A DNA stretch of 64,000 nucleotides from the NCBI GenBank assembly GCA_963820825.1, contig CAWGBN010000002.1:128001-192000 (forward strand), read 5' to 3'. The position numbers and the translations under genes are program-made. Below the pieces are notes generated by a model. The model had not been told where the DNA came from and ran no database searches. It was given only the letters and a program-made list of their open reading frames with translations. This stretch comes from Vulcanimicrobiota bacterium (GTDB lineage: Bacteria; Vulcanimicrobiota; Vulcanimicrobiia; Vulcanimicrobiales; Vulcanimicrobiaceae). Positions within the stretch are counted from its first letter, which is position 1; each line of letters begins with the position of its first letter. This document shows positions 1 through 20,595 of the stretch, piece after piece.

Positions 1-532
1 GGCTGCAGCTCGCGTGGTGCTGCTCGCATTCCAGCGTCGTGACGATCGTCTGCATCGCTCGATGGAGCGTCGGCGTAAAGATCGAGGAGTCGCGCGTGTC
101 GGCGTAATAGACGAAGACGAGCAGGACCGGCCAGGCTAACGAGTCGATCTCCCACTTCCGTTCCCAGACGTGATAATCGGCCGAGAAGGCCTCAGCGTAA
201 GGATCGGTGAGAATATTCTTGGCGTCGCGCTGAATGACGCCGTAAAACGCCGCGTGCAGCGCCGAGTACGATCGCACGAAACGGATGTACGGAATCGTCT
301 GGGCCGCCGAGTCGCGCAGCCACATCGCCGGAATATCTCCCGTCTGCACGTACGTGGTTTCATCGGGCTCCTTGAAGAAGTCGGCAAAGAGCTCGTGAAA
401 GAGCGTCTCGGTTTGAATCGGCCGAACTCCCGACGCGAGCGGAACGTCGAGCGTCTCGGCCAAGGCAGCGCCGCCGGGAAGGCTGCAGCATACGACGAGA
501 ACGAGCGCTAACGGCGTGATCCATCGGCTCAC
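1..532 (-). CDS. Glycoside hydrolase family 125 (exo-alpha-1,6-mannosidase-like), secreted; runs off the left edge
   Basis: Not in the ORF track; translated by hand from GTG at 532 (GAGGA upstream). Reads MSRWITPLALVLVVCCSLPGGAALA (signal-like), then TGDIPAMWLRDSAAQ, DPYAEAF and VWERKWEIDSL, which are GH125 motifs. Confidence 0.85.
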   Translation of the reverse strand, partial: MSRWITPLALVLVVCCSLPGGAALAETLDVPLASGVRPIQTETLFHELFADFFKEPDETTYVQTGDIPAMWLRDSAAQTIPYIRFVRSYSALHAAFYGVIQRDAKNILTDPYAEAFSADYHVWERKWEIDSLAWPVLLVFVYYADTRDSSIFTPTLHRAMQTIVTTLECEQHHASCS

Positions 533-575
533 GCGATTCCTCTTCGCCCCACAAACAAGCTTTGCCTCGGCGGCT

Positions 576-2657
576 TTACGTCAAGAGCCGCTCCGGTACG
601 ATCGGAAGGTCGCGCACGCGGATGCCCGTTGCGTGGTAGACGGCGTTGACGACCGCGGCAGCCGCACCCGTGATTGCGATCTCGCCGATCCCTTTCACGT
701 GCGCCGGATTCACGTGCGGATCGTCGGCCTCGATCGTAAAGATTTCGGGATCGGGAATATCGGCGTGCGTCGGAATGAGATACTCGCCGAGCCCGGGGTT
801 GGTGATCCGCGCGGTGCGAGAATCGTAGCGCGTCTTTTCGAAGAGCGCCATGCTGATGCCCCACACGATCCCGCCTAAGAGCTGACTGCGCGCGGTCTTT
901 GCGTTGAGCACGCGGCCGCAATCGAACGCGCCGACAAAACGCGTGACGCGCACCTCCCCGAGGTCCGGGTCGACCTGCACTTGCGCAAACTGCGCCCCGA
1001 ACGTCTGGTGGGCGTAGCCTTCTTCCTCGGAGTCGGGCTTCGATTCGACCTCGAGCGCGAGGCCGCCCGGCGGGATACGCCCGCCCAGCGATGCGAGCTC
1101 TTCACGAAGGCGTGCGGCGGCAAGTACGACGGCAGAGCCGACGCTCCCGGACGTCATCGACCCCGCGGCGATCGGAGCGTACGGAAGGTCCGTATCGCCG
1201 AACTCAAAGCGTACGCGTTCGAAGGGAATCTCGAGAAGCTCGGCGGCGAGCTGGGCGTAGACCGTCGACGAGCCGCAACCTTGTTCGATCGTGCCGCACG
1301 CAATGACGACTCCTCCATCCTCGTCGAGCCGGATGCGGGCGTGCGCCTCGCTTCGGCCCGCACCATGCGACGCGGTGGCCATGCCGAGCCCGACGAGCAT
1401 TCTTCCGTTGCGCATCGAGCGCACAAGCGGAGTTCGCCGGCTCCAACCAAACCGCTCGGCCGCGAGCCGATAACAATCGCGCAAGCGTTTGCTGCCGTAG
1501 GGTTTGCCGCTATCGGGATCGCGCTCGGCGTGGTTTCGCAGACGCAGCTCGAGCGGATCGACGCCTAATGCGTATGCGAGCTCGTCCATCGCGGACTCCA
1601 TGGCGAAGGAACCGGTCGACTCGCCCGGAGATCGTTGATACGTGGGCTTGCTGATGCTCAGCCGGGGAAGCTGATGCGACATCGCGTAGTTCGAAACCGC
1701 GTATAAATCGCGGCTGAAGAGACCGCACGGCTCGATGAACTCGTCGCTCAGGCTCGTCTCGCTCAACACGTCGTGCGAGAGGCCGACGAGCCGTCCGTCG
1801 CGCTCGGCCCCGAGCGCGACGTGCTGCTCGGTCTGAGGCCGGTGGCCGATCCAGGCAAACATCTGCGGCCGCGTAACGACGAGCTTCACCGGCCGGTCGA
1901 CGAGCTTCGCTGCCATCGCGGCAAGCGCGACGTGCGAGCGCGGCTCTCCCTTCGAGCCGAAGGCGCCGCCGACGTACGGGACGATCACCCGAATCTGCGA
2001 CGGCGCAATCTCGAAGACCGCAGCAAGACGCTGACGAACGCCGAACGCCCACTGAGTCGAATCGCGCAGCGTTAGACGCTCTTCGTTCCACTGGGCGATC
2101 GTCGCGTGCGTCTCGATCGGGTTGTGATGCTCCGTCGGCGTACGATACGTCTGCTCGACGCGCACCGGCGCGCCCGCCAACGCGCCCGCGGGATCGCCGC
2201 GCCGATGTTTGGCCGGGCGGCCGAAGATCGCTTCGGGGACGTACCGCGTGGCCGTCTCGAAATCCATCTCCGGATCCTTAGCACGATACTCGACGCGAAC
2301 GAGTCGCGCGGCGTATGCCGCCTCGTCGAGGCTCTTGGCGATCACGACCGCGACCGGCTGACCGTCGAACTCGATGCGATCCTCTTGGAGCAAGAACATG
2401 TGCGAGCCGAACCGCTCCCCTTTGCTGCTCGTCACGCGCGGGGCGTTGGCGTGCGTCATCACCTCGATCACGCCCGGCGCACGACGCGCGGGCGCATCGT
2501 CGATCGCAACGACGCGCCCCCGCGCGATCGTACTGGTGACGACGACCGCGTGAACCATGCCCTCGACGCTATAATCGGCGGTGTAGATTGCCGCGCCGGT
2601 CACTTTCTCGGGTCCGTCGACGCGGTCGCGCGGCGCCCCGGTGAGCGGCCGGCTCAT
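576..2657 (-). CDS. Xanthine dehydrogenase-family molybdopterin-binding subunit (PaoC/YagR-like)
   Basis: RVDGPEKVTG N-terminus, VGGAFGSKG motif, KGIGE motif with the catalytic Glu, C-terminal AVYHATGIRVRDLP. Confidence 0.93.
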   Translation of the reverse strand: MSRPLTGAPRDRVDGPEKVTGAAIYTADYSVEGMVHAVVVTSTIARGRVVAIDDAPARRAPGVIEVMTHANAPRVTSSKGERFGSHMFLLQEDRIEFDGQPVAVVIAKSLDEAAYAARLVRVEYRAKDPEMDFETATRYVPEAIFGRPAKHRRGDPAGALAGAPVRVEQTYRTPTEHHNPIETHATIAQWNEERLTLRDSTQWAFGVRQRLAAVFEIAPSQIRVIVPYVGGAFGSKGEPRSHVALAAMAAKLVDRPVKLVVTRPQMFAWIGHRPQTEQHVALGAERDGRLVGLSHDVLSETSLSDEFIEPCGLFSRDLYAVSNYAMSHQLPRLSISKPTYQRSPGESTGSFAMESAMDELAYALGVDPLELRLRNHAERDPDSGKPYGSKRLRDCYRLAAERFGWSRRTPLVRSMRNGRMLVGLGMATASHGAGRSEAHARIRLDEDGGVVIACGTIEQGCGSSTVYAQLAAELLEIPFERVRFEFGDTDLPYAPIAAGSMTSGSVGSAVVLAAARLREELASLGGRIPPGGLALEVESKPDSEEEGYAHQTFGAQFAQVQVDPDLGEVRVTRFVGAFDCGRVLNAKTARSQLLGGIVWGISMALFEKTRYDSRTARITNPGLGEYLIPTHADIPDPEIFTIEADDPHVNPAHVKGIGEIAITGAAAAVVNAVYHATGIRVRDLPIVPERLLT

Positions 2658-3634
2658 GCGCCCGCCGCGATCTCGAGCGCGCGAACCAGCGCACGTTGAG
2701 CCAATCGAATCTTGAACTCGTTCGCGCCGTGGCCGCGCGCGCCGTCCAGCGCGGCGACGGCCGCACTTTCGAAGGTTTCGCGGATTGGCGGCAGGCCGGC
2801 GAGCGCGCGCTCCGCCGATACCGAGTGCCAGGGAATGGTACCGACGCCGCCGAGCGCGACGCGCGCCTCTCGAATTCGTCCTGCTGCCGAGTCGAGCGCG
2901 ACGGCAACGGAGACCAGCGCGAAGTCGTATTGCGCGCGGTCGCGAACCTTGACATAGGTCGAATGCGCGCCATAACTCGGCACGGACACCGATACTCCGA
3001 CGATCAGCTCGTCCGCGCAGAGCGCCGTTTCGATTTGCGGCGTCTCGCCCGGTAAGCGGTAGAACTCGCGAAACGCGATCCCACGATTCCCGGCGGTTCC
3101 GGTAACGTGAACGGTTGCGTCGAGCGCGACCAACGCAACGGCGAGGTCGGAAGGATGCGCCGCGATGCAGTGCGCGCTCGTTCCCAGAACGGCTTGACGC
3201 CGGTTCTCGCCGTGCAGCGCTGCGCAGCCGCTCCCGGGGGCGCGCTTGTTGCAGGGCGCCGCCACGTCGCGAAAGTAGGGGCAGCGCGTACGCTGCAAGA
3301 GGTTGCCGCCGACCGTCGCCACGTTACGAATTTGCGGCGAGGCGCTCTGCTGCAGCGCGATCGCGACGAGCGGAAGCCGGGAACGAACCGCTTCGTTCGC
3401 CGCAACGTCGCTTAGACGTGTGAGAGCACCGAGATATAGATGCTCGCCGCGCAGCTCGACTTCGGTCAACGGCAGCGCGTTAATGTCGATGACCAGCGGC
3501 GGCTCCTCGACCGCACCCTTCATAAGATCGAACAGGTTCGTCCCACCGGCAACGTACCGCGCGCCCGGGCGTGCGGCAAGCGCGGCCGCAGCGTCGGCGG
3601 GGCTCACGGCTCTGACGTACTCGAAGGGGTTCAC
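2654..3634 (-). CDS. Xanthine dehydrogenase-family FAD-binding subunit (PaoB/YagS-like)
   Basis: AGGTNL and IRNVATVGGNLLQRTRC motifs plus a Cys insert (CPYF..CNK..GC..HC). Start reset to GTG 3634, which overlaps the upstream stop (GTGA). Confidence 0.92.
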   Translation of the reverse strand: MNPFEYVRAVSPADAAAALAARPGARYVAGGTNLFDLMKGAVEEPPLVIDINALPLTEVELRGEHLYLGALTRLSDVAANEAVRSRLPLVAIALQQSASPQIRNVATVGGNLLQRTRCPYFRDVAAPCNKRAPGSGCAALHGENRRQAVLGTSAHCIAAHPSDLAVALVALDATVHVTGTAGNRGIAFREFYRLPGETPQIETALCADELIVGVSVSVPSYGAHSTYVKVRDRAQYDFALVSVAVALDSAAGRIREARVALGGVGTIPWHSVSAERALAGLPPIRETFESAAVAALDGARGHGANEFKIRLAQRALVRALEIAAGA

Positions 3635-4104
3635 GTCGAGGCGCTCACCTCGAGGATCGCCTCGACAATATTCGGATAGCACCCGCAGCGGCAGAGATTG
3701 CCGCTCATCTCTTCACGGATGGTCTCCCGATCGAGGCTCTTACCGGCGCCGAGCAGAGCGACGGCCGAGACGATCTGTCCGGGCGTGCAGTAGCCGCATT
3801 GCAATCCGTCGTGCTCGATGAAGGCGCGTTGAATCGGATGGAGCTCGCCCTCTTCGGCGATCCCCTCGATGGTGACGATGAACTCGCCGTCGTGCATTAC
3901 CGCCAGGGTCAAACACGAGAGAACCGGCCGTCCGTTGACGAGCACCGTGCACGCGCCGCAGGTGCCCTGGTCGCAACCCTTCTTGGCGCCGGTCGATCCC
4001 AGCCGCTCGCGCAATGCGTCGAGCAGCGTCACGCGCGGCTCGAGGACGAGTTCCCGATCGGTGCCGTTGACGTTGAGAACGAGGTGCGCCGTCGACGACG
4101 CCAT
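3631..4104 (-). CDS. (2Fe-2S)-binding subunit (PaoA/YagT-like)
   Basis: GCDQGTCGAC, QCGYCTPG and NLCRCG motifs; no Tat leader. Confidence 0.93.
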   Translation of the reverse strand: MASSTAHLVLNVNGTDRELVLEPRVTLLDALRERLGSTGAKKGCDQGTCGACTVLVNGRPVLSCLTLAVMHDGEFIVTIEGIAEEGELHPIQRAFIEHDGLQCGYCTPGQIVSAVALLGAGKSLDRETIREEMSGNLCRCGCYPNIVEAILEVSAST

Positions 4105-4111
4105 CGCCGCG

Positions 4112-5092
4112 CTAGCCGAGGAAAGCGGGCGCCGTCTGCAGCCCGCCGCCGTTGCCGTTACCCCAGAGCGCGTACTGCAGCGATTGCTTGGAGTTCATCG
4201 AGGCCGCGCCGGTCTCGCCGCTGGGATTGATGGCGATCACACAATACATGTCGTCGTGCAGATTCGGCGCGGTTTTGGCCATGAATCGCATGACGTCGTT
4301 GCAAGCCTCTTGCGGGTGCGCGCCTTGCGCCATCCGCTGCACGATGAACATCGACGTGCAATAGTTCGCCATCACGTCGCCGTTACCGGTCGCCGACGCC
4401 GCTCCCGCCGCGTCGTCCGCGTAGTATCCGCAACCGACCAAGGGCGAGTCGGCAACGCGCCCGGGGATCTTCCAAGCCAGCCCGCTCGTCGAGCAGCCGG
4501 CCACAACGTGCCCGGCGCCGTCGATGCCGACCATGCCGACGGTGTCGTGATGATTCCGGTCGATCCAAAAGTCATCGTGGTTCGGCCTGTTCTTCCACTT
4601 CAACCACTCTGCGAGGCTGTGCGGCGTCAAGAGCTGCATCGGTTCGAATCCCATCGCGATCGCAAACGCAAGCGCGCCCTCGCCGGCCATGGTCGTATGC
4701 CGCGTCTTCTCCATCACCAGACGCGCGACGGAGATCGGATTCTTGATCTTATGGAGGTTGCAGACCGACCCGGCGCGGTGCGTCGTGCCGTTCATGATGC
4801 CGGCGTCGAGCTCGACCTCGCCCTGCGCGTTGGGAAGTCCGCCGTAGCCGACGCTATCGACGTTGGGATCGTCCTCGACGACGTTGATGCCTTTCTCGAC
4901 CGCATCCATGAGCGATCCGCCTGCGGCCAGCACCTGCGCCGCGCGCGCATTCGCCTCGATCCCCCAGTCCCACGTTGTAAGAAAGACCGCCCCGCCCGGC
5001 GCCGCCTGGATCGGCGCTGGGGTCACGGCGGCGAGCGTCGCCGTGGCGGCGCCGGTGGTTACCAGAAACGTACGGCGGTCGATTGGGTCCAC
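4112..5092 (-). CDS. N(4)-(beta-N-acetylglucosaminyl)-L-asparaginase (Ntn hydrolase), Tat-exported
   Basis: DRRTFL Tat motif, SVGYGGLP, HDTVG autocleavage site, GRVADSP. Confidence 0.9.
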   Translation of the reverse strand: MDPIDRRTFLVTTGAATATLAAVTPAPIQAAPGGAVFLTTWDWGIEANARAAQVLAAGGSLMDAVEKGINVVEDDPNVDSVGYGGLPNAQGEVELDAGIMNGTTHRAGSVCNLHKIKNPISVARLVMEKTRHTTMAGEGALAFAIAMGFEPMQLLTPHSLAEWLKWKNRPNHDDFWIDRNHHDTVGMVGIDGAGHVVAGCSTSGLAWKIPGRVADSPLVGCGYYADDAAGAASATGNGDVMANYCTSMFIVQRMAQGAHPQEACNDVMRFMAKTAPNLHDDMYCVIAINPSGETGAASMNSKQSLQYALWGNGNGGGLQTAPAFLG

Positions 5093-9500: not shown

Positions 9501-10306
9501 CGGCGTTCCCATTGCAAGGCCGCCGACGGCAAAACCCGGATAAGTTCCGGTCTTGATGACTTGATTGATGAAGCCGGCGAGGCCCGTCGCATTTGCGTCG
9601 GCTTCGCCGCCGCCGGCATAGATCTGCAGCTCTTGCTGGCCGAGCGTCGTCTCGGAGTTCCCCGGATAGTTATCGAACGATCGGTTGATCGGTACGCCGT
9701 CGTACTCGTAGCCGATCTGATCGTAGTATCCGCCGCGAATGTAGACGGTCTGATTGACGCCGACTGATTCGGCGGCACGTACGAGCCGGGCATCGCCGCA
9801 ATCGCAGAGTAGGCGTTGTTCAAACCGCCTCCGCCGCCGAGCGTCGCCGCGGCGGTGGTCAGTCCCGGATTGACCGAGTATACGTCGGTGCCCGTTCCGG
9901 GGCGCACCGGACTGAGCGACGAGCGGGACGTGACGCGGGCAATCTGCTTGAGACTCTTCTGCAGCGCTATCGGCAGCGATTGGCTTTGATCGGCGAAGAC
10001 CGAGATGCCGGTGATCGCGACCGTATCGTATCCCTCGTGCACGACGGTGATGGTATACGTCTCGGGCGCGAGCGAGAGAAAGGTGTAACGGCCCGCGGCA
10101 TCCGTCGTGACCCGAGCGACTTGCGACGGACTCGTCGCCGTCACTTCGGCACCGGCGATCGGCGCCCGGGTCGACGCGTTGAAGACTGTTCCGGTAATCG
10201 TACCCGTCGTACCGGCTATCGCTTCTTGCTCTCCAAGGCAAACGAGCAACGCCGCAACGAGCAGCGCGCAGACTAACGAAGAGAGAGACCAGCTCCTCAA
10301 GTTCAT
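6555..10306 (-). CDS. TonB-dependent receptor with N-terminal carboxypeptidase-regulatory-like domain; one frameshift near 9765
   Basis: Signal peptide and GTTGTITGTV..TDAAGRY lie in ORF 9371..10306. The plug (YIRGG..IGYEYDGVP) and barrel ending YFSLQVKL lie in ORF 6555..10511. One missing base at AAT CAG ^TC GGC GTC joins the frames. Confidence 0.85.
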
Positions 10307-10389
10307 CCCTCCAACAGCAGCAACTCAGGAAGGCACTTAGCGCGTTTGAGCGGTATGCTCCTTCATTGCGCTTGCTATTGGAGGACACC

Positions 10390-10926
10390 ATGAATAGCTT
10401 ACTCACACGCAAGGCCGTCGGCGCGGCGATTGGCCTGGCTCTCTTGACCGCATGCGCGGGCAGCTCAAGCGCCGGCGGCGTCCCGGCTGCCGGATCCTCG
10501 ATGCCGACCACGGCGAGCCGCGATCGCGGCGCGACCTATCCGAATCTCAGCGGCGAATACGCCGGCAAGTTCGTCGACAATGCGTACGGGAAGGGCAAGG
10601 GGAGCGCGATCTACGCTCAGTACCAGAGCGCATTCGGCGGCCAGCTGACGATCAAATATGCGACGAGCACCCTCTCGGCCTCGGTCTCCCAGACCGTTAG
10701 CGGAAGTTCCGTCAACGGGAGCACGGCCGGCGGCGCGGGGAGCCTCTACTGCACGTTCTCGACGACCGCGACCTACGACAAAGCGACCCACATTTTAAGC
10801 GGCTCGTACACGGCGGCGTACGGCTGCGCCGGTGAAACCGGAACGTTCTCGCTCAAGCATCTCTGCGTTTTCAAGGGCACGACGCACGAAGATATCCGTC
10901 CCGATAACGGACCGCGCCCCTGCTAG
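10390..10926 (+). CDS. Hypothetical lipoprotein
   Basis: GGAGGA RBS before ATG 10390; LLTAC lipobox; beta-rich body with 4 further Cys; divergent from the receptor. Confidence 0.75.
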   Translation: MNSLLTRKAVGAAIGLALLTACAGSSSAGGVPAAGSSMPTTASRDRGATYPNLSGEYAGKFVDNAYGKGKGSAIYAQYQSAFGGQLTIKYATSTLSASVSQTVSGSSVNGSTAGGAGSLYCTFSTTATYDKATHILSGSYTAAYGCAGETGTFSLKHLCVFKGTTHEDIRPDNGPRPC

Positions 10927-13620
10927 TAGGATAGCGCGTTCGATAGGCCTTGATCTTGAGTCCAGCTCGCGCCTTCGGATAGTAGCTGCGCGAGGTCGGA
11001 CGCTTGCAGTTTCTGCCGGAGGCTGGCGTGGAGGCCGGCGATCGTCATCGTATCCGGCGGAAGCAGCTCCCAGCCGAACGTTCGGAACTGCTCTTCCGCG
11101 TAGCCGATGAGGCGCGCGCGCAATTCGCGGCCGCTCTTCGCCGGCCACGACGGCGAGATACGATATTGCGAGTGCGGCGAGGATTTCGTGCCGCGCCTTT
11201 ACCGCGAGCGCGAGCGCCCGGCGCGCGAAGGGCTCGGCCCGCGTCCGGTCGCCCGCTGCGAGGAGGGCGCTGGCGATGTCGTTGGTGAGAGACGTCAATG
11301 CCGCATCGCGATCGGCGAGTTCGGCGGCCTCGAGCAGTCGCCGCGCGGCGTTGTCGTGATTGCCGACGTTGTTCTCCCACTGGCCCCACCACTGCAAGGC
11401 TCGCGCCGTATCGTCGGCACGACCGAGCAATTGAAAGAGCGCCACACTCTCCTCATACCGCGCGCGCACCGAATCGGCTCCGGTGTCGCCGAAGGCCTCC
11501 GCGCACCGCCGGAGTACGTCGGCCAGTAGCCGCCGGTCGCCGCTATCGCGCGCAAACTGCAGCGCTTCTTCTGCCGCCGGTTTCGCCTCGTCGTAGCGCG
11601 ATTGCGGCGCGTATCGCGAAGCGACTTGCGAGAGCGCTCGCGCCAAGCCCCGCCGGTCGCCGACGCCTCGATAGAGCGCAGCGGCGATCAATGCCTCGTC
11701 GAGACACCTCTGCTCAGCGCCGGTGGAGCTATACAGCATCGAGAGCCCGTATCGCAGCCGCGCCTCAACCGACGCAGGCAATGCAAAGGCACCTTGCAGC
11801 ACGCAATCGCTCCACTCGATTCCTTCGGCGAGAAAGCCCAGCCGCAAGAAAAGAATCGTCGCATCCGCGACCAGTTGCCCGCCGAGCACGGCAGCGTTGC
11901 CTTCCTCGACGCTCCAACGCAAGGCCGCGCGCACGTTTGCAAGCTCTCGCTCGGCGCGTACGAGCCAATCCGCAGCCGGACCCTTCTCCCACTCGTCGTA
12001 TGCCGCGGCGGCAAACGCCGCGAACGCGGCGCAGTGGCGTCGCCTCGCCTCGTCAAGCTCGCCCGATTCGACGAGCCTCTCCCAGCCGTATTCGCGAATC
12101 GGCTCGAGCAGACGGTAACGCTGATCGGCTTCGTCGACGTCCACGACGACGAGCGAGCCGTCGGCCAGCGAGGTGAGCATATCGAGGATCCGCCACTCGT
12201 CGTCACCCTCCCCGCTGCAGACTTCGGCGGCGTGCGCGACCGTAAATCCCTTGAGAAAGACCGCAGCCCGGCGGAGAACCCGTCTCTCGTCGTCGGTCAG
12301 CAGCTCGTAGCTCCAATCGATGAGCGCGCGCATCGTCTGTTGGCGCGGACGCCGGTCGCGTCCGCCGGTCAGCAGGCGGAGTTCCAGATGCGAAGCGAGG
12401 CTCTCCACCGATATCGTTCGCACGCGCGCCGCGGCAAGCTCGATGGCCAATGCGATGCCGTCCAATCGCAAGCAGATCGCTTCGATCGCGGCCGTCTTGG
12501 CCTCGAGGTGGAATGCGGGATTGGCCGCGCGGGCACGGTCGGCGAAGAGCTGGACTGCCGAAGCCGGATCGAGCGTGGCGAGGCGATAGACGCGCTCGGC
12601 CGAGATATCGAGCGGTATTCGGCTCGTTGCGAGCACGGTCAGGTGCGGACACCGCTCGACGAGCCGAGCGACGATCGGCGCCACGTCGGCGACGAGATGT
12701 TCGCTATTATCCAAGACCAGCAGCAACTGGCGCCGCCTGAGAAACTCGATGAGATCGTCGAGCGGGTCGCCGTCGTTCGAAGGCTCCGCGCCGACGGCTG
12801 ATAGAATCGTACCGGCGATCAGCGCCGGATCGCCGACGGCCGAGAGATCGGCAAACCAAACGCCGTCGCGCTCCTCGTTGAGGCGGGCCGCCGCAATTTC
12901 CAGCGCGAGCCGCGTCTTGCCGATGCCGCCGGCGCCTGCGACGGTAACGACGGAACCTTCGTCTAACAGCGCCTCGACGCGAGCGAGATCGTCGTGGCGT
13001 CCGACAAAGCTCGTGCTCTGCCGGGGAAGATTGTTCGGCGGGGTTCGCAACGCGCGCAGCGGCTTGAACTCGGAGCGCAATCCTTCTCCGACCGCCTGAT
13101 ATATGCGCTCGGGCTCCTTGATGCCGCGCAGTGGAACGGTGCCGAGATTACGCAGCGTGATGCCGGCCGGAAGCTTTCCGAATGCCAGCTCTGCGGCAAA
13201 TGCGGAGAGCACGATCTGGCCGCCGTGCGCGGCGGAGAGCAGGCGCGCCGTGCGATTGAGGGCGGTGCCGAAGTAATCGCCGGAGCGCTCGTCGGTTTCA
13301 CCGGCATGGATCGCCATTCGAACGCGCAAGCCGTCGACCGCGCGAAAATCCTCGCGTTCGAACCGGCGCTGCACGTCGGTCGCAGCCTCTAACGCGTCGG
13401 CCGCACTCCAGAAGGCGGCACAGAATGCGTCGCCGATCGTTTTGAAGACGTAACCGCGCCGAAGCTCGATCGCTTCACGGAGGAGTTCGTCGTGACGGCG
13501 CAGCGCATCGCGCATTCCCTCGCCATACTGCTCCCAGCGCCGCGTACTCGCTTCGACGTCCGAAAACAAGAACGCAACCATCCCGGTCGGCAGAGCAGCT
13601 GGGGCATCGGGCACGTGCAC
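10923..13620 (-). CDS. Class III adenylate/guanylate cyclase + STAND (NB-ARC-like) ATPase + TPR-like protein; one frameshift near 11125
   Basis: FLFSDVEAST and KTIGDAF cyclase motifs, NNLPRQSTSFVGR, Walker A GAGGIGKT, Walker B LLLVLDNSEH. The helical C-terminus continues in ORF 10923..11123. Confidence 0.88.
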
Positions 13621-13638
13621 CTCTTCCGCCCGCGGGCA

Positions 13639-14334
13639 TCACGCGCCCTTCGCCGCCTTTTGCTCGCCTCTGCCCGGACGCGCAAAGAAGAGCGTCATCG
13701 CAAGCGCGGCGAGGATGGCGCCGGTGCACGGACCGGCGACATAGATCCACATGAGATCGGCCGCTCCGCCGAGGAGTTGCGGCGGGATCGAACGCGCGGG
13801 ATTCATCGAGGCGCCGCTGATCGGTCCCGCGGCGAAGCCGCAGGCCGCAACCGTTAGACCGACGGCGAGCGCCGCTTGTTTACCGACGACCGCCTCTTTT
13901 GCGGTCATGAGGATCACGAGCATGAGCAGAAACGTCAGCACGGCCTCAACGATTGCCGCCTGCGCGTGCGTGTACGAGGGACCGGGATGACTCGCGCCCA
14001 GGACGAGCGCGTGACCCCAGAGCGCGAAGAGCAGCAGTGCGGCGCCAAAACCACCGGCGAACTGTGCGAGCCAATACCAGAGCATCTGCGCCACCGGCAT
14101 CGCTCGGCGCACGACGAAACCGAGCGAGACGGCCGGATCGATGTGGGCGCCGGAGACCTGCGAGAAGGCGTAGATCATCGCCGCGGTGATAAAACCGCGC
14201 GCCAGCCAGCGCGAAACGTAATCGACGTGGCCGGCACCGGTGTAATACAGCACGTCGACGCCGGTCGCGACGAGCGTTTGGAAGAACGTGCCGAGGAGCT
14301 CGGCACCGAGCTTGCGTGCCACCTCCGATTTCAT
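13639..14334 (-). CDS. MIP/aquaporin family channel
   Basis: AELLGTF, SGAHIDPAVS (first NPA box reads DPA), SGASMNPARS, six hydrophobic segments. Confidence 0.9.
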   Translation of the reverse strand: MKSEVARKLGAELLGTFFQTLVATGVDVLYYTGAGHVDYVSRWLARGFITAAMIYAFSQVSGAHIDPAVSLGFVVRRAMPVAQMLWYWLAQFAGGFGAALLLFALWGHALVLGASHPGPSYTHAQAAIVEAVLTFLLMLVILMTAKEAVVGKQAALAVGLTVAACGFAAGPISGASMNPARSIPPQLLGGAADLMWIYVAGPCTGAILAALAMTLFFARPGRGEQKAAKGA

Positions 14335-14476
14335 ACCCGTACTCGCCGCCCACCCAAGCGGGCGCGTTCGATCTATGGCAAGTTGGGGCTGCGCAATCGC
14401 TCAGAGCTCCAGCATTCGTCGGCCGCGCCGATAGGGCGCGGCCGAAGGACTAGAAATAACCCCGCGAAGCGGTGGC

Positions 14477-16027
14477 TTAGTTGTAGTGGCGCTTGTCGCG
14501 CAGCATCGTCACCGGCGCGACCGGCTTCGATAGCGCGGCAACCAGCTCGGCCCGACTCTTCACGTTAAAGGTTTGGAAGAGCTGCGAGAGCTGGTTGCGG
14601 ACGGTGTTCGGACTGCGGCCGAGAACCGTTGCGATCTCCGCGTTTCGTCGTCCGGCGCGAACGAGCTCGAGCACTTGCCGCTTCGCCGGCGGAATCCGAT
14701 CGAGACGCAGCACCGAGGTATTCGTCGCCTCCGCGACGCGGCGGGCGATCCAGCTGTGCGGCCAGGGGTCGATCTTGCGCGCGGCGCGCTGCACCCATTT
14801 GCGATCTTTCGTTACGTCGTAGAGCGCCAGTGCGCAGAGCGCGGCACGCCATGCATAGTTGAAATCTTCGAAGATCGACCAGGCTTCGGTGAGGGCGGCC
14901 TTGCCCTCGTCGACGTCTCCCAACCGAAGCCACGCCACGCCTTGGGAGTATGCTTCAAATCCCTTGACGCGCGGATCGGTGCCGTACGAAAGAATCGGGA
15001 TGACCGACGTCGTCAGCGTCCGGAATCGCGCGAGGTATTGCTCGGCGATGGCCGGATCGTCGTGCGCGAAGAGCTCCGCGAGGACGAGCAACGCCGACCG
15101 TTCCTCGCCGGTGACGTCGTTCCACGAGACGCTCTGCGCGATCTCGTGCGCCTCTTGAATCTGCTCGGTCGCGAACGCATACTCGCCGGTGTTACGGGCC
15201 AGCAGCGCTCGATCGAGGAAACAGAGGACGCTCCAGTGATTGGATGGCGCGAGCCGCGCCGCTCGGCGGAAGCCGGCGAACGCGGCAAGCTCGTTTCCGT
15301 CGAGCTCGTCGATCGCCGCGAGAAAGCGCGTGACCTGGAAATGCTCGAGCTGCAGACCCTTCGTCCACGGCAGCCCTTCGAAGATGCTGCGGACCCGGTC
15401 GGCGACCTCGCGCAACGGGAGCTCGCGACAGAGCAGCGCAAGCGTGAAGAGCGCGTTGGCCCGGAAGTACTGGTCGGCCGCTTCGGCGGCATCGAGCTCG
15501 TCGAGCGCCTTCTGCAGCTCGTCGACCTGGCGAAGAATCTCGCCGCGGCGCAACGCGATCCACGAGAGTAGAATATGCGCCCGCGCGCGATTATTCGGAT
15601 CGGCCGAACGCAGCTCGGTCGAGGCTGCCTGCTCGGCCTCGCGGTGGTCCTGCCTCATCCATGCAATAAGCGCTTTATAATGAAGGGCGTCGTAATACCA
15701 GGCGCTCTGCGGCGAGAGCTCGTTGAGCGCCCGCTCGATCAGGCGCGTCCCGGCGACGTAATCTCGCGTGAGTCCCAGCGCGGCACCGAGCAAGACGTCG
15801 CGCGCTACCCGGACCTCCGGCGACGCCTTCGGAACCTCCGAAAGCGCGCCGATGATCTCGACGTACCGGCGTTCCCGCAGCGCGAGGCGCGCGCGGGCAA
15901 GAACGGCGTCGTAACCGTCGCCGATCTCAACGAGTTCACGGCAGCGGTCAAAGTCCGCAGCCGTGAAGGCTTTTTCGAACTCCACCGCGTCAAAGCCGCG
16001 GTGGGTCAGTGCAGCGCTTGTCAACAT
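14477..16027 (-). CDS. Transcriptional regulator: long helical (TPR-like) N-terminal region + C-terminal LuxR HTH
   Basis: C-terminal RQVLELVRAGRRNAEIATVLGRSPNTVRNQLSQLFQTFNVKSRAEL is a LuxR/GerE HTH. The first ~450 aa are Ala/Leu-rich helical repeats. ATG 16027 has GGGGA upstream (alternative TTG 16051). Confidence 0.85.
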   Translation of the reverse strand: MLTSAALTHRGFDAVEFEKAFTAADFDRCRELVEIGDGYDAVLARARLALRERRYVEIIGALSEVPKASPEVRVARDVLLGAALGLTRDYVAGTRLIERALNELSPQSAWYYDALHYKALIAWMRQDHREAEQAASTELRSADPNNRARAHILLSWIALRRGEILRQVDELQKALDELDAAEAADQYFRANALFTLALLCRELPLREVADRVRSIFEGLPWTKGLQLEHFQVTRFLAAIDELDGNELAAFAGFRRAARLAPSNHWSVLCFLDRALLARNTGEYAFATEQIQEAHEIAQSVSWNDVTGEERSALLVLAELFAHDDPAIAEQYLARFRTLTTSVIPILSYGTDPRVKGFEAYSQGVAWLRLGDVDEGKAALTEAWSIFEDFNYAWRAALCALALYDVTKDRKWVQRAARKIDPWPHSWIARRVAEATNTSVLRLDRIPPAKRQVLELVRAGRRNAEIATVLGRSPNTVRNQLSQLFQTFNVKSRAELVAALSKPVAPVTMLRDKRHYN

Positions 16028-16138
16028 GGTCGTCCCCGGTTTAATCAACAATATGCATGGTAAAAGGGCCCGCGGTCTATACCACCGGACAATGCCGGAA
16101 GTTACTTAGTACATTCGTCTGCCTGGTTCCTTCCCGGT

Positions 16139-16504
16139 CTAGCCGTGCCCACCGCTATGAGGGACCGGGCCCCCGCCGACTGAGTCCATGTGACGAGGGA
16201 CCGGGCCGCCGCCGACCGAGTCGAGATGGCGGGTCCGGGCATCCTTACGCGGGACCGGACCACCGCCGACGGAGTCGAGGTGGTGGATGCGCGCCGCCGC
16301 GTGCGGGACGGGACCGCCGCCGACCGAGTCCATGTGCCGCATATCGGGACGCGGAACCGGACCGCCGCCGACGGAGTCGAGGTGGTGCATCATCGTTTGG
16401 TTAGCGCTTGGAAGGGGGGAACCGCCGGCAAAGCCACCGCCCGCACATCCGCCGAGCATAGCTCCTGCGAGGACGAGGCCGGCCACAGCGATCATCTTGC
16501 GCAT
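16139..16504 (-). CDS. Small lipoprotein-signal precursor with 5 repeats of H[L/M]DSVGGGPVP
   Basis: MRK + hydrophobic core + LGGC lipobox; AAGGG RBS; the repeats differ almost only at synonymous positions. Confidence 0.85.
   Translation of the reverse strand: MRKMIAVAGLVLAGAMLGGCAGGGFAGGSPLPSANQTMMHHLDSVGGGPVPRPDMRHMDSVGGGPVPHAAARIHHLDSVGGGPVPRKDARTRHLDSVGGGPVPRHMDSVGGGPVPHSGGHG
16160..16384 (-). repeat. Five 33-bp coding repeats separated by 1-7 codon spacers
   Basis: Consensus CAY (CTC/ATG) GAC TCN GTC GGC GGN GGY CCS GTY CCN, read directly from the sequence. Confidence 0.9.
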
Positions 16505-16761
16505 CTCTGTTTACCCTTTCAGCGCCGGGAGGCGCCAGGAAGCATAAAAGGTAGTACGAATATACTAGTACCAAAAAGCCTCCAGGGATAGGGCCGCTTG
16601 GCAAACTTTGCAGAAACTAGATAAACCTAGCGGATGGCTACGACAAGATGTCGGCAAACAGCTCAGCAGGCCTCTCACTTCGAGAGGTCTAAGGGTGTTT
16701 GCCGCGGTTTGGAAGGCCCTTCCCAACCGCTAATCTCCCTTGAGAAGAAGGAACCAACTCT

Positions 16762-17769
16762 ATGACTCACTCTCTTCTTCGCGTGCGCAGGCAATTGTTA
16801 ACGGCAGCGTTGCTTGCGATCGTCACTCCGGCGATCGTAGCCTGCAGCGGGACCTCATCGTTTGCGCCCTCGGCGCAGACGCCGTCCGGCTCGGCAGTAT
16901 CGGACGGCGTACGCCACTTCGGCTCGACCTCATGGAACTTTTCAACGCTGGACGATCCGAACAATCCGTCGTACAGCGAGCTGCTCGGCATCAACAACGA
17001 AAAGAAGATCTGCGGCTACTATGGCGCCGGCACCACCGGCGATCCCGCCAACGGCTTCTGCCTCGCCGAGCAAGGTAACGCCCACTTCCGCCAGCACGAC
17101 TACCCTACCGCGCTAGACACCTACGTCACGTCGCTGAACAACACGAAGGCGTTCGCGGGCTGGTATTTGAGCAACTTCGGCCCGACCTTCGGCTTCATTA
17201 TGCAGCACGGGGTCTGGACGAGCTACAAAGATCTCAAGCTCCGCAAGGGGCACACGAATATCACCAAGATTCTCGGATTGAGCGACGCCGGTCTGGCCGT
17301 CGGCTTCTACGTTGACGATGCCGGCGTGAACCACGGATTCGAGCTCAACTCAACCGTCGCGAAGTATCACCCCATCGTCCCGCCCGGCGGCATCAGCGTC
17401 GAGGCGACCGGAATCAACGGCAAGGGTGATATCGTCGGCTTCATGACGACCGGGAACGGCGATACGAAGAGCTTCCTCTTAAAAGGAGGCAGCTTTACCA
17501 TCTTCGCCTATCCGAAATCCCAGAACACGCAGGCGCTCGGCGTCAACTGGCAGGACCAGGTCGTCGGCTCGTTCGTCGACGCCTCCGGGAACACGCACGC
17601 CTTCTTGTTGACCGATCCGCTGAGCCATCCGTCGTGGATGCAGATCGACGAACCCAAGGCCGCCGGACCGACCGTGCTCACGAGCCTGGAGAACCACGAC
17701 TATATGGTCGGGTACTACGTCGATAGCGTCGGGCACACCAACGGCTTCTTAGCGACGCCGGCAAAGTAG
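16762..17769 (+). CDS. Secreted lipoprotein with HAF-like extracellular repeats
   Basis: IVAC lipobox; repeated units of the type GIN..G.IVG.Y.D..G.THAF/NHGF/TNGF. Confidence 0.75.
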   Translation: MTHSLLRVRRQLLTAALLAIVTPAIVACSGTSSFAPSAQTPSGSAVSDGVRHFGSTSWNFSTLDDPNNPSYSELLGINNEKKICGYYGAGTTGDPANGFCLAEQGNAHFRQHDYPTALDTYVTSLNNTKAFAGWYLSNFGPTFGFIMQHGVWTSYKDLKLRKGHTNITKILGLSDAGLAVGFYVDDAGVNHGFELNSTVAKYHPIVPPGGISVEATGINGKGDIVGFMTTGNGDTKSFLLKGGSFTIFAYPKSQNTQALGVNWQDQVVGSFVDASGNTHAFLLTDPLSHPSWMQIDEPKAAGPTVLTSLENHDYMVGYYVDSVGHTNGFLATPAK

Positions 17770-17788
17770 GGCGGAGAACCCGCCCTAC
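17766..17788. terminator. Hairpin between convergent genes
   Basis: GTAGGGCGG-AGAAC-CCGCCCTAC, 9-bp stem; no U-tract. Confidence 0.45.
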
Positions 17789-17803
17789 GCCCGTGCCCCG
17801 GGA

Positions 17804-19201
17804 CTACTCCGTATCGGGCGGGTAGTGGCTCGTGGGCTGGTGGAGGAAGAAATCCTTGCCGTATTTGGCCGGGATTACTTTGAACTTGCGCGGCGGTTGT
17901 GTGAAGTCGAACGCATCCGATTCCGGTGAGCGGCCCGCGCATCGCTGGCCGACAGCCGTCCGAGGCCGAACTGGTCTTCGATGAATCGCAGAATGCTGCC
18001 GTGCTCGTAGGGGACGTGAGACACGTAGCCCTTTCTTTGCATACGGTGAGATGATCAGCATCGGCAGCCGCAAGCCAAGTCCGTCGTAGTCGACGAAGGC
18101 AGGCGCGACCGGGATCGTACCATCCGCCGTAGTCGTCCCAGAAGATGAAGATGGCGGTCGAGTCCCAATACTTCGACTGTGCCGACGGCGTTGACCAGCG
18201 ACGTCTACCCACGACGGCCCGGTTTTGGAGCCGCTGCCGGCGTGGTCGGAGTTCTCCCACGTCGGCGTGATCCAGCTGACCGCCGGCAAATTGCCGTTCG
18301 AAAGGTCGTTGAAGACTTGCGTTTGCGGCGTGATGATTTCTCGTCTTCCAATCCGGACCGTTGTAGATGTGGTTGATCGCCTGATAGGCGCTCCAGATAC
18401 CCAGATCGCCGTTGACCGTCGCGGTGTAGAATCCCCACGAAACGCCCGCGCTGTCGAGCTCGTCTCCGAGGGTCGTCGGATCCCAGCACACGACTTCGTT
18501 CCCCGACGGAATCTGACGCTGCTGTCCGACCTGGAAATCTTATCGCCGGATCCACCGGGACAGCCCCAAGCACCGTCGGGATAGTTGACCGCCGATTCCG
18601 CCTGCCCGGAGATAATGTACTGGTGCGAAATGAAGCTGCTCGCGTCGAAGTTCGACGCGAACATTTGATCGGCCAGCACGTACTGCTTGGCCATTTCGAA
18701 ATAGGGCTTCGTTTCGGTGTGCGGCACGTAACTGTACGTTGGATTCGGGTTCGGGCAAGGGGGCCGGGACCGGCCGCCGCACCCGACGTACTCGTTGTTG
18801 AAGCCGTTCATCCGGCAGTTGGTACCGGGAATGCTTCCCGGTGCCGTTGCAGGCGGCAAAAAACGAGTTCGAGCTGTGGTCGATGTCCCAGGACGTTTCG
18901 AGGCCGACCGGCTGCAGCGTGATCTTTTGACCGCTGGAGTTGATAGCCGTACTTTGCCGTCTTCGCGCCGGGGAAACCGTAGAAGAGGTTGTTGAAGCTC
19001 GCGATTCTCTTGCACGATGATGATGACGTGTTGAATCTTGCCTCTGGCCGGATCGCGCAGCTCCTCGAGGACCGGCGGCGTACGCTGCGGCGCGGAGAGT
19101 GAGGCTAAGGGTAGGGCCGGAGCGGGGCCGGCCGGCGCACCGCCGCCGCAGGCCGTGAGGCCGGCGACGCCGGCGATGGCGAACGATAAGCGGCGAATCA
19201 T
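17804..19201 (-). pseudogene. Phosphoesterase/phospholipase C family lipoprotein, copy 3, with many indels (pseudogene or assembly error)
   Basis: ATG 19201 overlaps the upstream stop; LTAC lipobox; KIQHVIIIVQENR. Sequence matching the two intact paralogs is spread over all three frames (ORFs 17715..18491, 17804..19597). Confidence 0.75.
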
Positions 19202-20595
19202 TGGTCGTCCGGGAGATGGTGATCGGAAGGTTGATGCATAAAGTAATCCTTGCTCAGTACCGTTGGGATTATTTTGAAGGTGCGCGGAGGCTGTTTGAAG
19301 TCGAACTCCTTGACGATGGAGTTGGCGCGCGTGTCGCTTGCCGAGAGACGCCCCAAACCGAACTGGTCTTCGATGAACTTGAGAATGCTGCCGTGTTCGT
19401 AGTGAACGTGCGCGACGCGGTTCTTCGCATATGGTGAGATGATCAGCATGGGAATCCGCATCCCCAAACCGTCGTAGTCTACGTAATCCGGCGGCTCGGG
19501 ATCGAACCAGCCGCCATAATCGTCCCAAAAGATGACGATCGCGGTGGAGTCCCAGTATTGCGATTGCCCGATAGCGTTGACCAGCGTCGCAACCCACTGC
19601 GGTCCGGAGGTCGAGCCGGAGCCGGCGTGGTCGGAGTTCGTCCAGGTTGGCGTCACCCAGCTCACTGTCCGCAGCTTTCCGTTATAGATGTCGTCGAGAA
19701 ACTGCGTCGGCGGGCTGAAGACGTCTTTCTTCCAATCAGGCCCGTAATAGATGTGTTTGATCGCCTGATAGGAGCTCCAGATCCAGGGATAGTTGGAGTA
19801 CGCGACCGCGTAGAAAGCCCACGAGAGACCGGCATTGTCGAGCTCGTCGCCGAGCGTGTTGGGATCCCAGCAGACGACTTCGTATCCGCTGGGAATCTGG
19901 CGTTTCTGGCCAACCGTGGCGATCATGTCGCCCGAGCCGCCCGGACACCCCCACGCGCTCCACGGAAAGTTCACCGCCGACACCGCCTGCCCGGCGATGA
20001 TGTATTGGTGCGAGATGAAGCTGCTCGCGTCGAAGTTCGACGCATACATTTGGTCGGCGAGCACGTACTGCTTGGCCATATCGAAGTACGGCTTCGTCTC
20101 GCTGTGCGGCACGTAGCTGTACGGCGGATTCTGATTCGGACACGGCGCGTAGTGCGCGCCGCAGCCGAAGCCTTCGTGGTCGAAGCCGTTCATCTGGCAA
20201 TTCGTTCCGGGAATGCTTCCCGTACCATTGCAGGCCGCGAAGAAGCCGGAGGAGTCGTGTTCGATGTCCCAGGTGGTGGCGAGGGTGATCGGCTGCAGCG
20301 TGATCTTCGTTCCGGAGGTATTGTAACCGTACTTCGCCGTGGTCGCTCCCCTAAAACCGTAGAAGAGGTTGTTGAACGAGCGGTTCTCTTGAACGATGAT
20401 CACGACGTGTTGAATCTTGCCCTTGGCCGCACGCCGCTGACGCATCGGCGCGACCAGCAACCGCGATGCAGCCGGTGGTTGAAGCGAGCCGAGCGGCAGA
20501 GCCGGTGGGGTCGCGCTCGAGCCGCCGTTACAGGCCGACAAGAGCGCGGCACAGGCCGCGGCGAGATACGCCGTATTTACACGCATCTTGCGCAT
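19198..20595 (-). CDS. Phosphoesterase / phospholipase C (AcpA/PlcH family) lipoprotein, copy 2
   Basis: LSAC lipobox; IQHVVIIVQENRSF, SSFISHQY, SDHAG, FWDDYGGW, GMRIP, EHGSILKFIE. Confidence 0.9.
   Translation of the reverse strand: MRKMRVNTAYLAAACAALLSACNGGSSATPPALPLGSLQPPAASRLLVAPMRQRRAAKGKIQHVVIIVQENRSFNNLFYGFRGATTAKYGYNTSGTKITLQPITLATTWDIEHDSSGFFAACNGTGSIPGTNCQMNGFDHEGFGCGAHYAPCPNQNPPYSYVPHSETKPYFDMAKQYVLADQMYASNFDASSFISHQYIIAGQAVSAVNFPWSAWGCPGGSGDMIATVGQKRQIPSGYEVVCWDPNTLGDELDNAGLSWAFYAVAYSNYPWIWSSYQAIKHIYYGPDWKKDVFSPPTQFLDDIYNGKLRTVSWVTPTWTNSDHAGSGSTSGPQWVATLVNAIGQSQYWDSTAIVIFWDDYGGWFDPEPPDYVDYDGLGMRIPMLIISPYAKNRVAHVHYEHGSILKFIEDQFGLGRLSASDTRANSIVKEFDFKQPPRTFKIIPTVLSKDYFMHQPSDHHLPDDQ

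Follow-up and report, generated by a model that had tools for sequence, protein, structure and literature searches.

A candidate peptide-communication cassette pairing a repeat lipoprotein with a TPR-like, LuxR-type regulator in Vulcanimicrobiota

Peptide signaling through cytoplasmic tetratricopeptide repeat (TPR) receptors has been described for Firmicutes and their mobile elements, in two surveys that both analyzed Firmicutes and viruses only (PMC10075063, PMC9765709). In one of them, such RRNPP systems are recognized by a five-point signature, namely a small propeptide, a Sec signal, a receptor of 250-500 amino acids (aa), TPRs and adjacency of the two genes (PMC10075063). Here we describe a two-gene cassette in a 64,000-nucleotide (nt) stretch of DNA from a Vulcanimicrobiota bacterium (the window; positions 128001-192000 of contig C2 in genome G000), where the gene for a small exported protein, a lipoprotein with five copies of the unit DSVGGGPVP, lies directly upstream, on the same strand, of a gene for a cytoplasmic regulator with a TPR-like sensor and a C-terminal LuxR-type helix-turn-helix (HTH). 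Read from sequence, the comparative case for a family of cognate peptide-regulator cassettes is strong, and we see about an even chance that the pair forms a two-gene cognate peptide-receptor circuit, one that would work like RRNPP with different parts and not be a member of it.

The cassette and its closest described relatives

The cassette follows the five-point signature in spirit. Like the RRNPP(A) systems (Rap-Phr, NprR-NprX, PlcR-PapR, PrgX, Rgg-SHP and ComR), it sets an exported propeptide gene beside a cytoplasmic TPR-superhelix receptor of ~500 aa, the two lying on the same strand with a gap of 111 nt and adjacent at 70 of 73 loci. The window precursor has a Sec-type export signal by pattern, and the superhelical ligand domain is seen in an AlphaFold2 (AF2) model of the 516-aa regulator, its Pfam TPR match being below cut-off. 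Also shared with RRNPP(A) are the several paralogous cassettes per genome, each with its own peptide, their presence on chromosomes and a mobile element, and a last unit that often falls at or near the propeptide C-terminus. In contrast, the HTH here is C-terminal and of LuxR/GerE type, whereas RRNPP receptors carry an N-terminal XRE-type HTH or three-helix bundle; the host is a diderm of the Eremiobacterota, not a Firmicute; precursors reach more than 20 units; and sequence homology is not convincing (RapJ, E 0.003 over 127 residues). RRNPP_detector, applied to Firmicutes and viruses only and by default taking receptors of ≤500 aa, propeptides of ≤100 aa and TPR profile matches at E < 1e-5, would miss the cassette because of its 516-aa receptor, its median propeptide length of 118 aa and its weak Pfam TPR score.

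An earlier note on this DNA had further set the locus apart from RRNPP by its several peptides per precursor and its lipoprotein signal, and neither distinction is a defining one: published work reports propeptides with 1-4 pheromone copies (PMC11343458) and 211 of 2,734 RRNPPA propeptides predicted to be cleaved by signal peptidase II (PMC9765709). Several identical or near-identical pheromone copies per propeptide also occur in the tandem Phr propeptides of Rap phi3T and Rap phi105, where release needs extracellular cuts on both sides of the copies and the number of copies is 1-4 (PMC11343458); the present precursors differ in holding 2 to >20, in being anchored through a lipobox and in having units that evolve in concert within the gene.

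A full-text literature search, with subscription journals outside its coverage, returned no description of a TPR plus C-terminal LuxR receptor with an adjoining repeat peptide, nor of peptide quorum sensing in Eremiobacterota, in line with the earlier remark that this is not a described family. Signals cut from lipoprotein or tandem-repeat precursors, as proposed here, are otherwise familiar from enterococcal sex pheromones, which come out of the signal peptide of lipoprotein precursors and not out of the mature part, and from fungal alpha-factor, which is cut from tandem-repeat precursors at Kex2 dibasic sites and acts through membrane receptors.

A selected repeat unit conserved beside the regulator

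The precursor in the window begins MRKMIAVAGLVLAGAMLGGC, by pattern a short basic n-region (MRK), a hydrophobic core and the lipobox LGGC, judged against the lipobox consensus. Each DSVGGGPVP unit is preceded by H[LM], the spacers read RPDMR, HAAARIH, RKDARTR and R, and HSGGHG forms the tail; the 121-aa open reading frame (ORF), its lipobox, five units and spacers are thus all as the earlier note had them. The five 27-nt unit copies vary at six sites, all at third codon positions and all synonymous, with 0 non-synonymous changes at ~18.7 sites, and Tandem Repeats Finder also calls a 54-nt period in the array. Since the changes are synonymous only, it is selection on the protein that maintains the unit and not recent DNA duplication; the unit is under purifying selection and the array is not a compositional accident. 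With the lipoprotein, searches of Pfam and NCBIfam stayed below threshold and yielded nothing beyond chance matches (CCD48 at 19.3 bits, cut-off 30.4; StpX at 15.9, cut-off 450), and in a protein atlas the lipoprotein and the regulator resemble only generic small-lipoprotein and TPR/LuxR clusters, with scores ≤0.91.

By the source names of the homologues, the host, a soil bacterium, is Candidatus Cybelea (Eremiobacterota/Vulcanimicrobiota, Baltobacteraceae). All 23 lipoprotein homologues at E ≤ 0.01 have a lipobox and at least two units of type [D][SV][VI]GGG[PL]. Full-length regulator orthologues (64-95% identity) are present in 23 of the 24 other genomes of the genus, the single genome without one being 68% complete, and at all 12 loci from this genus-genome search the repeat lipoprotein stands beside the regulator. 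A collection of named GTDB species, which overlaps the 12-locus set in species so that the two are not to be summed, yielded 80 loci, made up of 78 at orthologue level (63-96% identity) and two paralogues. Five of the 78 extend too little upstream (0-445 nt); an intact upstream repeat lipoprotein is found at 70 of the 73 that can be evaluated (48 by a strict regular expression, 20 by a relaxed reading that admits variant units and two with very long arrays), and at one further locus (L069) the lipoprotein looks frameshifted in its signal peptide. The pair is on this count a conserved unit, as had been supposed.

The sequence of the unit varies from species to species (DSVGGGPV, DSVGGGLP, DVVGGGPV, EVIGGPVA, DS[ST]GGGIIL, ETLGGPT, SVGGSIPS, DFGGGPVV and others) and is near-uniform within one gene; spacers and copy number vary freely among orthologues, from 2 to >20 units across species. 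Among 63 proteins retrieved with one regular expression, GG runs number 2-20 (median 6), lengths span 70-312 aa (median 118), and the last GG run lies ≤11 residues from the C-terminus in 60. A regulated Gly/Pro-rich, disordered envelope lipoprotein (spacer, coat or adhesin) with slipping repeats, beside a regulator that senses something else such as a small molecule, would account for the lipobox, the low-complexity, elastin-like composition and the range in copy number, and MalT offers the precedent of a TPR-plus-LuxR regulator that binds a small molecule, a sugar. We nevertheless think this explanation unlikely: selection acts on the nine-residue unit and not on length or spacers, function tolerates from one to more than 20 units, paralogous peptides of 39-80 aa, which cannot be structural coats, keep a related motif, and a provirus carries the cassette beside its lysogeny switch.

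Many orthologous arrays consist of abutting units free of basic residues or His (for example SVGGSIPS in more than 20 copies, AGVVGGGPTP in nine, NVIGGPTPA in ten). Cleavage at basic/His spacers is therefore not supported as a general feature and was dropped. The earlier proposal of an analogous circuit is partly supported; its pairing, its expected clade pattern and its C-terminal LuxR HTH stand, and its basic/His cleavage does not. The same arrays speak to the idea of a periplasmic His/Asp metal-binding lipoprotein under a metal-responsive regulator, which the 13 His of the window protein and the H-x-D ahead of each unit might suggest; His and Asp are wholly lost in many orthologues, among them those with these three arrays, and the G-G core is kept in all, and we dropped this barely credible alternative.

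Repeated identical cores with variable linkers also bring to mind cyanobactin and fungal or plant repeat precursors. However, we regard it as very improbable that the small protein is a multi-core precursor of a ribosomally synthesized and post-translationally modified peptide (RiPP), with modifying enzymes encoded elsewhere and production controlled by the regulator. No RiPP-type modifying enzyme lies within ~10 kb on either side of the cassette in the window, which bears out the earlier note and sets the locus apart from multi-core RiPP clusters; no such gene is conserved beside the pair across the 78 orthologue-level loci (four neighbor families tested); and the precursor has a Sec/lipoprotein signal instead of a cytoplasmic leader.

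Paralogous cassettes, promoter repeats and a provirus member

Most genomes of the genus hold additional regulators ~30% identical to that of the window, and the window genome has exactly one (C2:278882-280525). We fetched 20 paralogous loci within the genus search, together with 22 from the family's other genera. Nearly all of the within-genus paralogues have, just upstream on the same strand, a small ORF with a hydrophobic or lipobox N-terminus and a motif related to the window unit, D-x(1-2)-G-G-x-x-P/T. In clade B the ORF (MFLFLHGLAL...D-GGG[ST]MPG) is present at 9/9 loci and its pairwise differences at codon positions 1/2/3 (693/555/1088) have a coding signature. Clade C peptides follow the pattern M..FF..L...DTPGG[PM], and a lipoprotein clade (L018, L115-L117) carries DSGG[VAI]M[TP]G in one to three copies. 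Regulators from a different family of the order (G027-G029) accompany lipoproteins with EGSHPPY three times, SGGGQPPY twice or ADGTLPPY twice, the last unit being the end of the protein in 3/3.

One uniform regular expression, applied to ≤600 nt upstream on the same strand, found a small motif-bearing ORF with a hydrophobic N-terminus at 21 of 43 non-orthologue loci, against 0/43 on the opposite strand upstream, 0/43 downstream and 0/43 on the opposite strand downstream. Over the whole 2.98-Mb window genome the same expression gives 17 hits, only two of them small-peptide-like, and these lie at the genome's only two regulators; counted by eye, 29 of the 43 loci have clear peptide ORFs and three have doubtful ones. 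Regulator homologues do, then, have neighboring small signal-peptide or hydrophobic ORFs, and the repeat or motif changes with regulator clade, two expectations of the earlier note. A quick maximum-likelihood tree built from 72 sensor domains groups the peptide types by regulator clade (clade supports 89-100), and within the orthologue clade sister regulators can differ in their unit (DSVGGGPM vs EVIGGPVA; DSVGGGLP vs DSTGGGII). The tree leaves out two loci with in-frame stops (L042, L099), two with an in-frame TGA (L129, L133), L111 (short), L026, L030 and L031 (near-duplicates) and 41 of the 76 remaining orthologue-level loci, 35 being kept for spread.

Many of the paralogous peptides start with a hydrophobic stretch lacking a charged n-region and may stay in the membrane, and the peptide and regulator genes are tightly linked, the stretch between them having no strong terminator. 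Both points suit a cell-autonomous circuit in which the regulator binds unexported precursor or membrane-inserted peptide, as an anti-regulator or secretion-load sensor, and no signal passes between cells. We hold such a circuit to be distinctly unlikely, given that the window clade, like several more, has its motif in the exported portion of a lipoprotein, across the membrane from a regulator without a signal peptide, and that a 1:1 tether would give a multi-copy array no evident function.

An alignment of the 300 nt upstream of the lipoprotein start at 64 loci contains ~120 nt that are almost invariant, including the elements listed in Table 1. The 23-nt inverted repeat reads GGTACTA-GTATATTCG-TACTACC, and a search that allows up to three mismatches finds its 22-mer nowhere else in the genome. 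At the corresponding position, clade B cassettes carry another palindrome (AGCTAGCC-N4-GGCTAGCT), and after it the same hairpin-plus-GAAAGGA arrangement; CTAG-containing repeats occur in 64 sequences of the orthologue clade, in seven of clade B, at two clade C loci and in the provirus. The paralogous cassettes covered, that of the provirus included, have their own peptide variant and their own CTAG-containing promoter repeats with the same hairpin-plus-Shine-Dalgarno leader. From this shared layout, operator-like repeat, leader, peptide gene and regulator seem to have duplicated and diverged as one unit, which fits autoregulation. Between the lipoprotein and regulator genes a consensus scan found neither a sigma-70 consensus nor a terminator, and the intergenic alignment has only a moderately conserved GC hairpin. 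A scan of 13500-17500 against Rfam by E-value gave two weak unrelated matches, none in the conserved leader.

Two side observations concern this region. A 67-aa ORF at 16401-16604 (-) is the translated conserved promoter/leader, and some public lipoprotein gene calls (P0004, P0008 and P0014) start inside it and so acquire a spurious conserved N-terminal extension (...VLVLVYSYY..FLAPPG...). Elsewhere in the window genome (C6:318030-318100), several GTACTA/TACTAGTA repeats overlap a TTGACA-N17-TATCGT promoter ahead of GntR-like regulator and ABC transporter genes.

A relative of the cassette is held by an IMG/VR record (G325, locus L138) of 50.9 kb, classed as a provirus with a CheckV completeness of 68%. 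Its regulator is closest to clade C (42-46% identity), whose peptides carry DTPGG. The pair lies between an integrase gene and divergent CI/Cro-like repressor genes, much as the arbitrium (AimR-AimP) modules of Bacillus phages sit in the lysogeny region of temperate phages, so that the record looks like an arbitrium-type layout in a phage of an Eremiobacterota host; the placement also mirrors phage Rap-Phr modules. Among AimR hits, 87% are in mobile genetic elements (PMC9765709). Unlike arbitrium, the provirus cassette has a C-terminal LuxR-type HTH and is known from one IMG/VR record, no aimX-like target has been identified for it, and its two-unit peptide starts hydrophobic, without a clear Sec n-region. 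It is a single instance, one of 50 pattern matches in IMG/VR, and two viral scans (with the provirus regulator and with the full-length alignment), which rest on a few exact peptide patterns, gave no second phage copy.

Searched with a profile of the sensor domain only, a set of 1.84 billion representatives at 50% identity contains 505 matching clusters at E ≤ 1e-30, rising to 1006 at E ≤ 1e-10. Among sequencing runs, no RNA run is listed as containing the DNA, and the DNA runs that do contain it have small shares only. Across 300 other genomes of the phylum, scored at E ≤ 1e-30 with at most five matches per genome, the profile is positive in 171/206 of the window's family, 1/3 of a second family, 1/22 of a third and 0/69 of 18 further families; the family of regulators is concentrated in one family of the phylum. 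The 171 positives include six unpublished genomes (G059, G061, G091, G223, G253 and G283), without which the count is 165/200; three of the six are also in the 61-genome paralogue tally, and no other claim rests on them. Some relatives depart from the usual architecture: P0144 and P0245 have two tandem sensor domains before one LuxR HTH, and P0187 and P0190 (~434-458 aa) have no HTH and could be either receptor-only proteins in the manner of Rap or gene calls that were cut short.

Table 1. Positions of cassette features in the window and in the provirus record G325
Feature	Position	Strand	Remarks
Pro-peptide/lipoprotein gene	16139..16504	-	121-aa ORF; 23 database homologues, all with lipobox and repeated units
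Signal peptide with lipobox L-G-G-C, residues 1-20 (Cys20)	16445..16504	-	sequence pattern
Five-unit DSVGGGPVP array	16160..16378	-	variable spacers; units identical in protein sequence
DSVGGGPVP units	16352-16378, 16304-16330, 16250-16276, 16196-16222, 16160-16186	-	
Regulator	14477..16027	-	516 aa from ATG at 16027; ORF reaches TTG at 16051 (524 aa)
LuxR/GerE-type HTH, residues 458-504	14540..14680	-	Pfam PF00196, E 1.7e-8, 34.4 bits vs cut-off 23.5
TPR-like superhelical sensor domain, residues 22-444 (524-aa numbering)	14720..15988	-	22 helices, helix-turn-helix pairs
5' leader hairpin GGCGCC-TCCC-GGCGC, then Shine-Dalgarno GAAAGGG	16514..16536	-	conserved in the 64-locus alignment
Imperfect inverted repeat GGTAcTA-N9-TAcTACC, 23 nt, around -10-like TATATT	16550..16572	-	≥90% conserved, 64 regions; candidate operator/promoter
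Palindrome GCAAAGTTTGC upstream of promoter	16601..16611	-	mostly 75-90% conserved; 6 genome sites; putative function
Conserved box CCGCTAGGTTT, second CTAG next in window	16617..16633	-	conserved in the 64-locus alignment
Candidate regulator target sites ahead of the peptide gene			GGTACTA-N9-TACTACC repeat; CTAGGTTT box
Integrase (G325)	1..1230	-	phrog_1, E 1.4e-59
49-aa ORF (G325), hydrophobic start	1338..1487	+	DAPGGLPIG twice, second copy at the C-terminus
507-aa regulator (G325)	1569..3092	+	
Divergent CI/Cro-like repressor pair (G325)	3882..4316, 4388..4597	-, +	
Further downstream (G325)			RecE-like exonuclease, replication genes, methyltransferase, portal protein

The regulator, the proposed circuit and the neighboring genes

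The regulator probably starts at the ATG at 16027, as its homologues are 513-516 aa long; with this start, the 111-nt gap and the PF00196 match at residues 458-504 agree with the helical-repeat protein of ~516 aa, ~110 bp downstream and ending in a LuxR HTH, of which the earlier note spoke. Pfam TPR_2 is a weak match (E 0.025, below cut-off). An AF2 model built from a 32-sequence alignment (mean pLDDT 87.3, pTM 0.78) has paired helices at 22-444 and a four-helix HTH at 455-508, so that the N-terminal 440 residues are predicted to be all-helical repeats. Invariant sensor residues, mostly aromatic or charged (W229, F238, W310, E317, R361 and R402), may line a peptide groove. With VIA-align, the top row for the model is pheromone-bound Rap phi3T (Z 21.3, root-mean-square deviation 6.5, 336/360 residues aligned), followed by RapI (Z 21.2), RapJ and RapF and then NprR (19.7) and AimR (19.1). 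A profile search of the PDB matched the DNA-binding part to the HTHs of GerE, NarL and FixJ, and the sensor only to designed consensus TPR proteins and, no better, to RapJ at E 0.0032 over 127 residues. The modeled fold is what an RRNPP-type receptor needs, and it does not demonstrate homology to RRNPP.

MalT and related large ATP-binding LuxR-family (LAL) regulators likewise have a helical-repeat sensor followed by a C-terminal LuxR-type HTH (PF00196, E 1.7e-8 in the present regulator), and the look-alike atlas clusters, which serve as leads only, are labelled TPR_MalT and 'LuxR C-terminal-related' at scores of ~0.90. In one such cluster (score 0.90) TPR_MalT occurs in 20% of members; TPR_MalT (PF17874) is not listed for the regulator at E ≤ 0.1. 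Unlike MalT/LAL proteins, the regulator lacks a STAND/AAA/NB-ARC NTPase, its longer relatives being tandem sensor duplications and not ATPase fusions, and to our knowledge MalT has no adjacent peptide gene. Unlike LuxR receptors for acyl-homoserine lactones, it has no PF03472 autoinducer-binding domain; the Pfam scan at E ≤ 0.1 lists neither this domain nor an NTPase family. PADLOC gave only HTH-level matches. A single in-frame stop (TAA or TAG where reported) interrupts the regulator orthologues L002 (G005), L006/L046 (G016), L042, L077 and L099, which could be pseudogenes, assembly errors or something else.

For the window cassette as a peptide-receptor circuit, we propose the following scheme. 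Sec would export the pre-pro-protein, which would be lipidated and cut by LspA at LGG|C, and extracytoplasmic proteases would then cut the disordered array into several peptides of ~9-11 residues with the core DSVGGGPVP, the copy number (2 to >20 in relatives) setting the number of signal molecules per translated precursor. The peptide would accumulate outside and be re-imported, for example through one of nine Opp/Dpp-type binding-protein systems, to bind the concave groove of the TPR domain at the site of the invariant aromatic and charged residues. Binding would alter contact of the LuxR-type HTH with the conserved repeats ahead of the peptide gene, giving autoregulation, and with other targets. 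The provirus cassette would by the same route feed into the lysis-lysogeny switch. The window genome encodes one LspA, nine SBP_bac_5 (Opp/Dpp-type) proteins and one Omp85, a set that fits the processing of lipoproteins, the uptake of peptides and an outer membrane and is specific for none of these, and Omp85, with LspA also present, agrees with the diderm host assumed earlier.

Several points weigh against this circuit. Cutting of the lipoprotein, release of the peptide, its import and its binding by the regulator are all steps that we infer from sequence, and the spacers hold no conserved cleavage site. The paralogous peptides that start hydrophobic without a charged n-region have an unclear export route. 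Two orthologue-level loci (L073 and L099) are without the lipoprotein, both being extra copies in genomes with complete cassettes, and there is no recognizable peptide ORF at 10 of the 22 loci from other genera or at L028. The peptide motif was defined after inspection of the data, which weakens the count of paralogous ORFs and not the controls, and the agreement of peptide type with regulator clade is consistency and not proof of co-evolution, since common descent alone predicts the same. In the structural comparisons, generic TPR superhelices (TTC7B, OGT and consensus TPR proteins) come top in Foldseek, and the unrelated eukaryotic TPR proteins LGN, APC and OGT reach Z ~20 in VIA-align, tied with the RRNPP receptors. 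Finally, the GTACTA hexamer of the cassette repeat recurs before the GntR-like regulator gene at C6:318040, so that a different protein may bind the cassette repeat, and cross-regulation of the cassette by the GntR-like regulator is possible.

On a wider and more tentative reading, to which we give somewhat less than an even chance, Baltobacteraceae and at least one of their temperate phages communicate by peptides through a superfamily of cassettes that is undescribed and probably evolved independently. This would comprise a receptor with a TPR sensor and a C-terminal LuxR HTH, a peptide code on the pattern D-x(1-2)-G-G-x-x-P/T, paralogous cassettes numbering up to five or more in a genome, each with its own peptide and operator, and in Cybelea a lipid-anchored poly-pheromone precursor giving up to ~20 signal molecules per translation. 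If so, the phage copy would for the first time extend arbitrium-like lysis-lysogeny signaling beyond the phages of Firmicutes, and a functioning analogue in this diderm soil phylum, nearly all of it uncultured, with a different DNA-binding module and a phage-borne member, would mean that this logic arose or spread much more widely. Such a superfamily would open a first way into the study of communication between cells and between phages in Eremiobacterota and would offer a natural series of orthogonal peptide/receptor/operator triplets, and the multi-copy lipoprotein precursor raises the question of how signal stoichiometry is tuned.

The neighbors of the cassette in the window encode a TonB-dependent receptor, a cyclase-NB-ARC-TPR protein, an aquaporin, a HAF-repeat lipoprotein, phosphoesterases, a CHASE3-SpoIIE protein and DnaE. 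Conservation of the flanking genes falls well short of that of the lipoprotein-regulator pair: in the 78 orthologue-level loci the cyclase gene is kept ≤2.5 kb from the cassette in 57, the phosphoesterase in 47, the HAF gene in 43 and the aquaporin (MIP) in 23. The product of the cyclase gene (10795-13620, -) is 941 aa long and combines an adenylate/guanylate cyclase domain with an NB-ARC/AAA STAND module and TPRs. Beside the cassette, a PF04185 phosphoesterase-family gene (17715-19597, -) appears as two overlapping ORFs and is probably frameshifted. The window genome has >70 tblastn matches to this family, with dense tandem arrays on C8 at ~314-361 kb; this abundance makes adjacency weak evidence, and we rejected the phosphoesterase neighbors as a hint of the regulon. 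On the far side, 4 kb from the cassette, lies the gene for the TonB-dependent receptor (6555-10511, -; 1318 aa).

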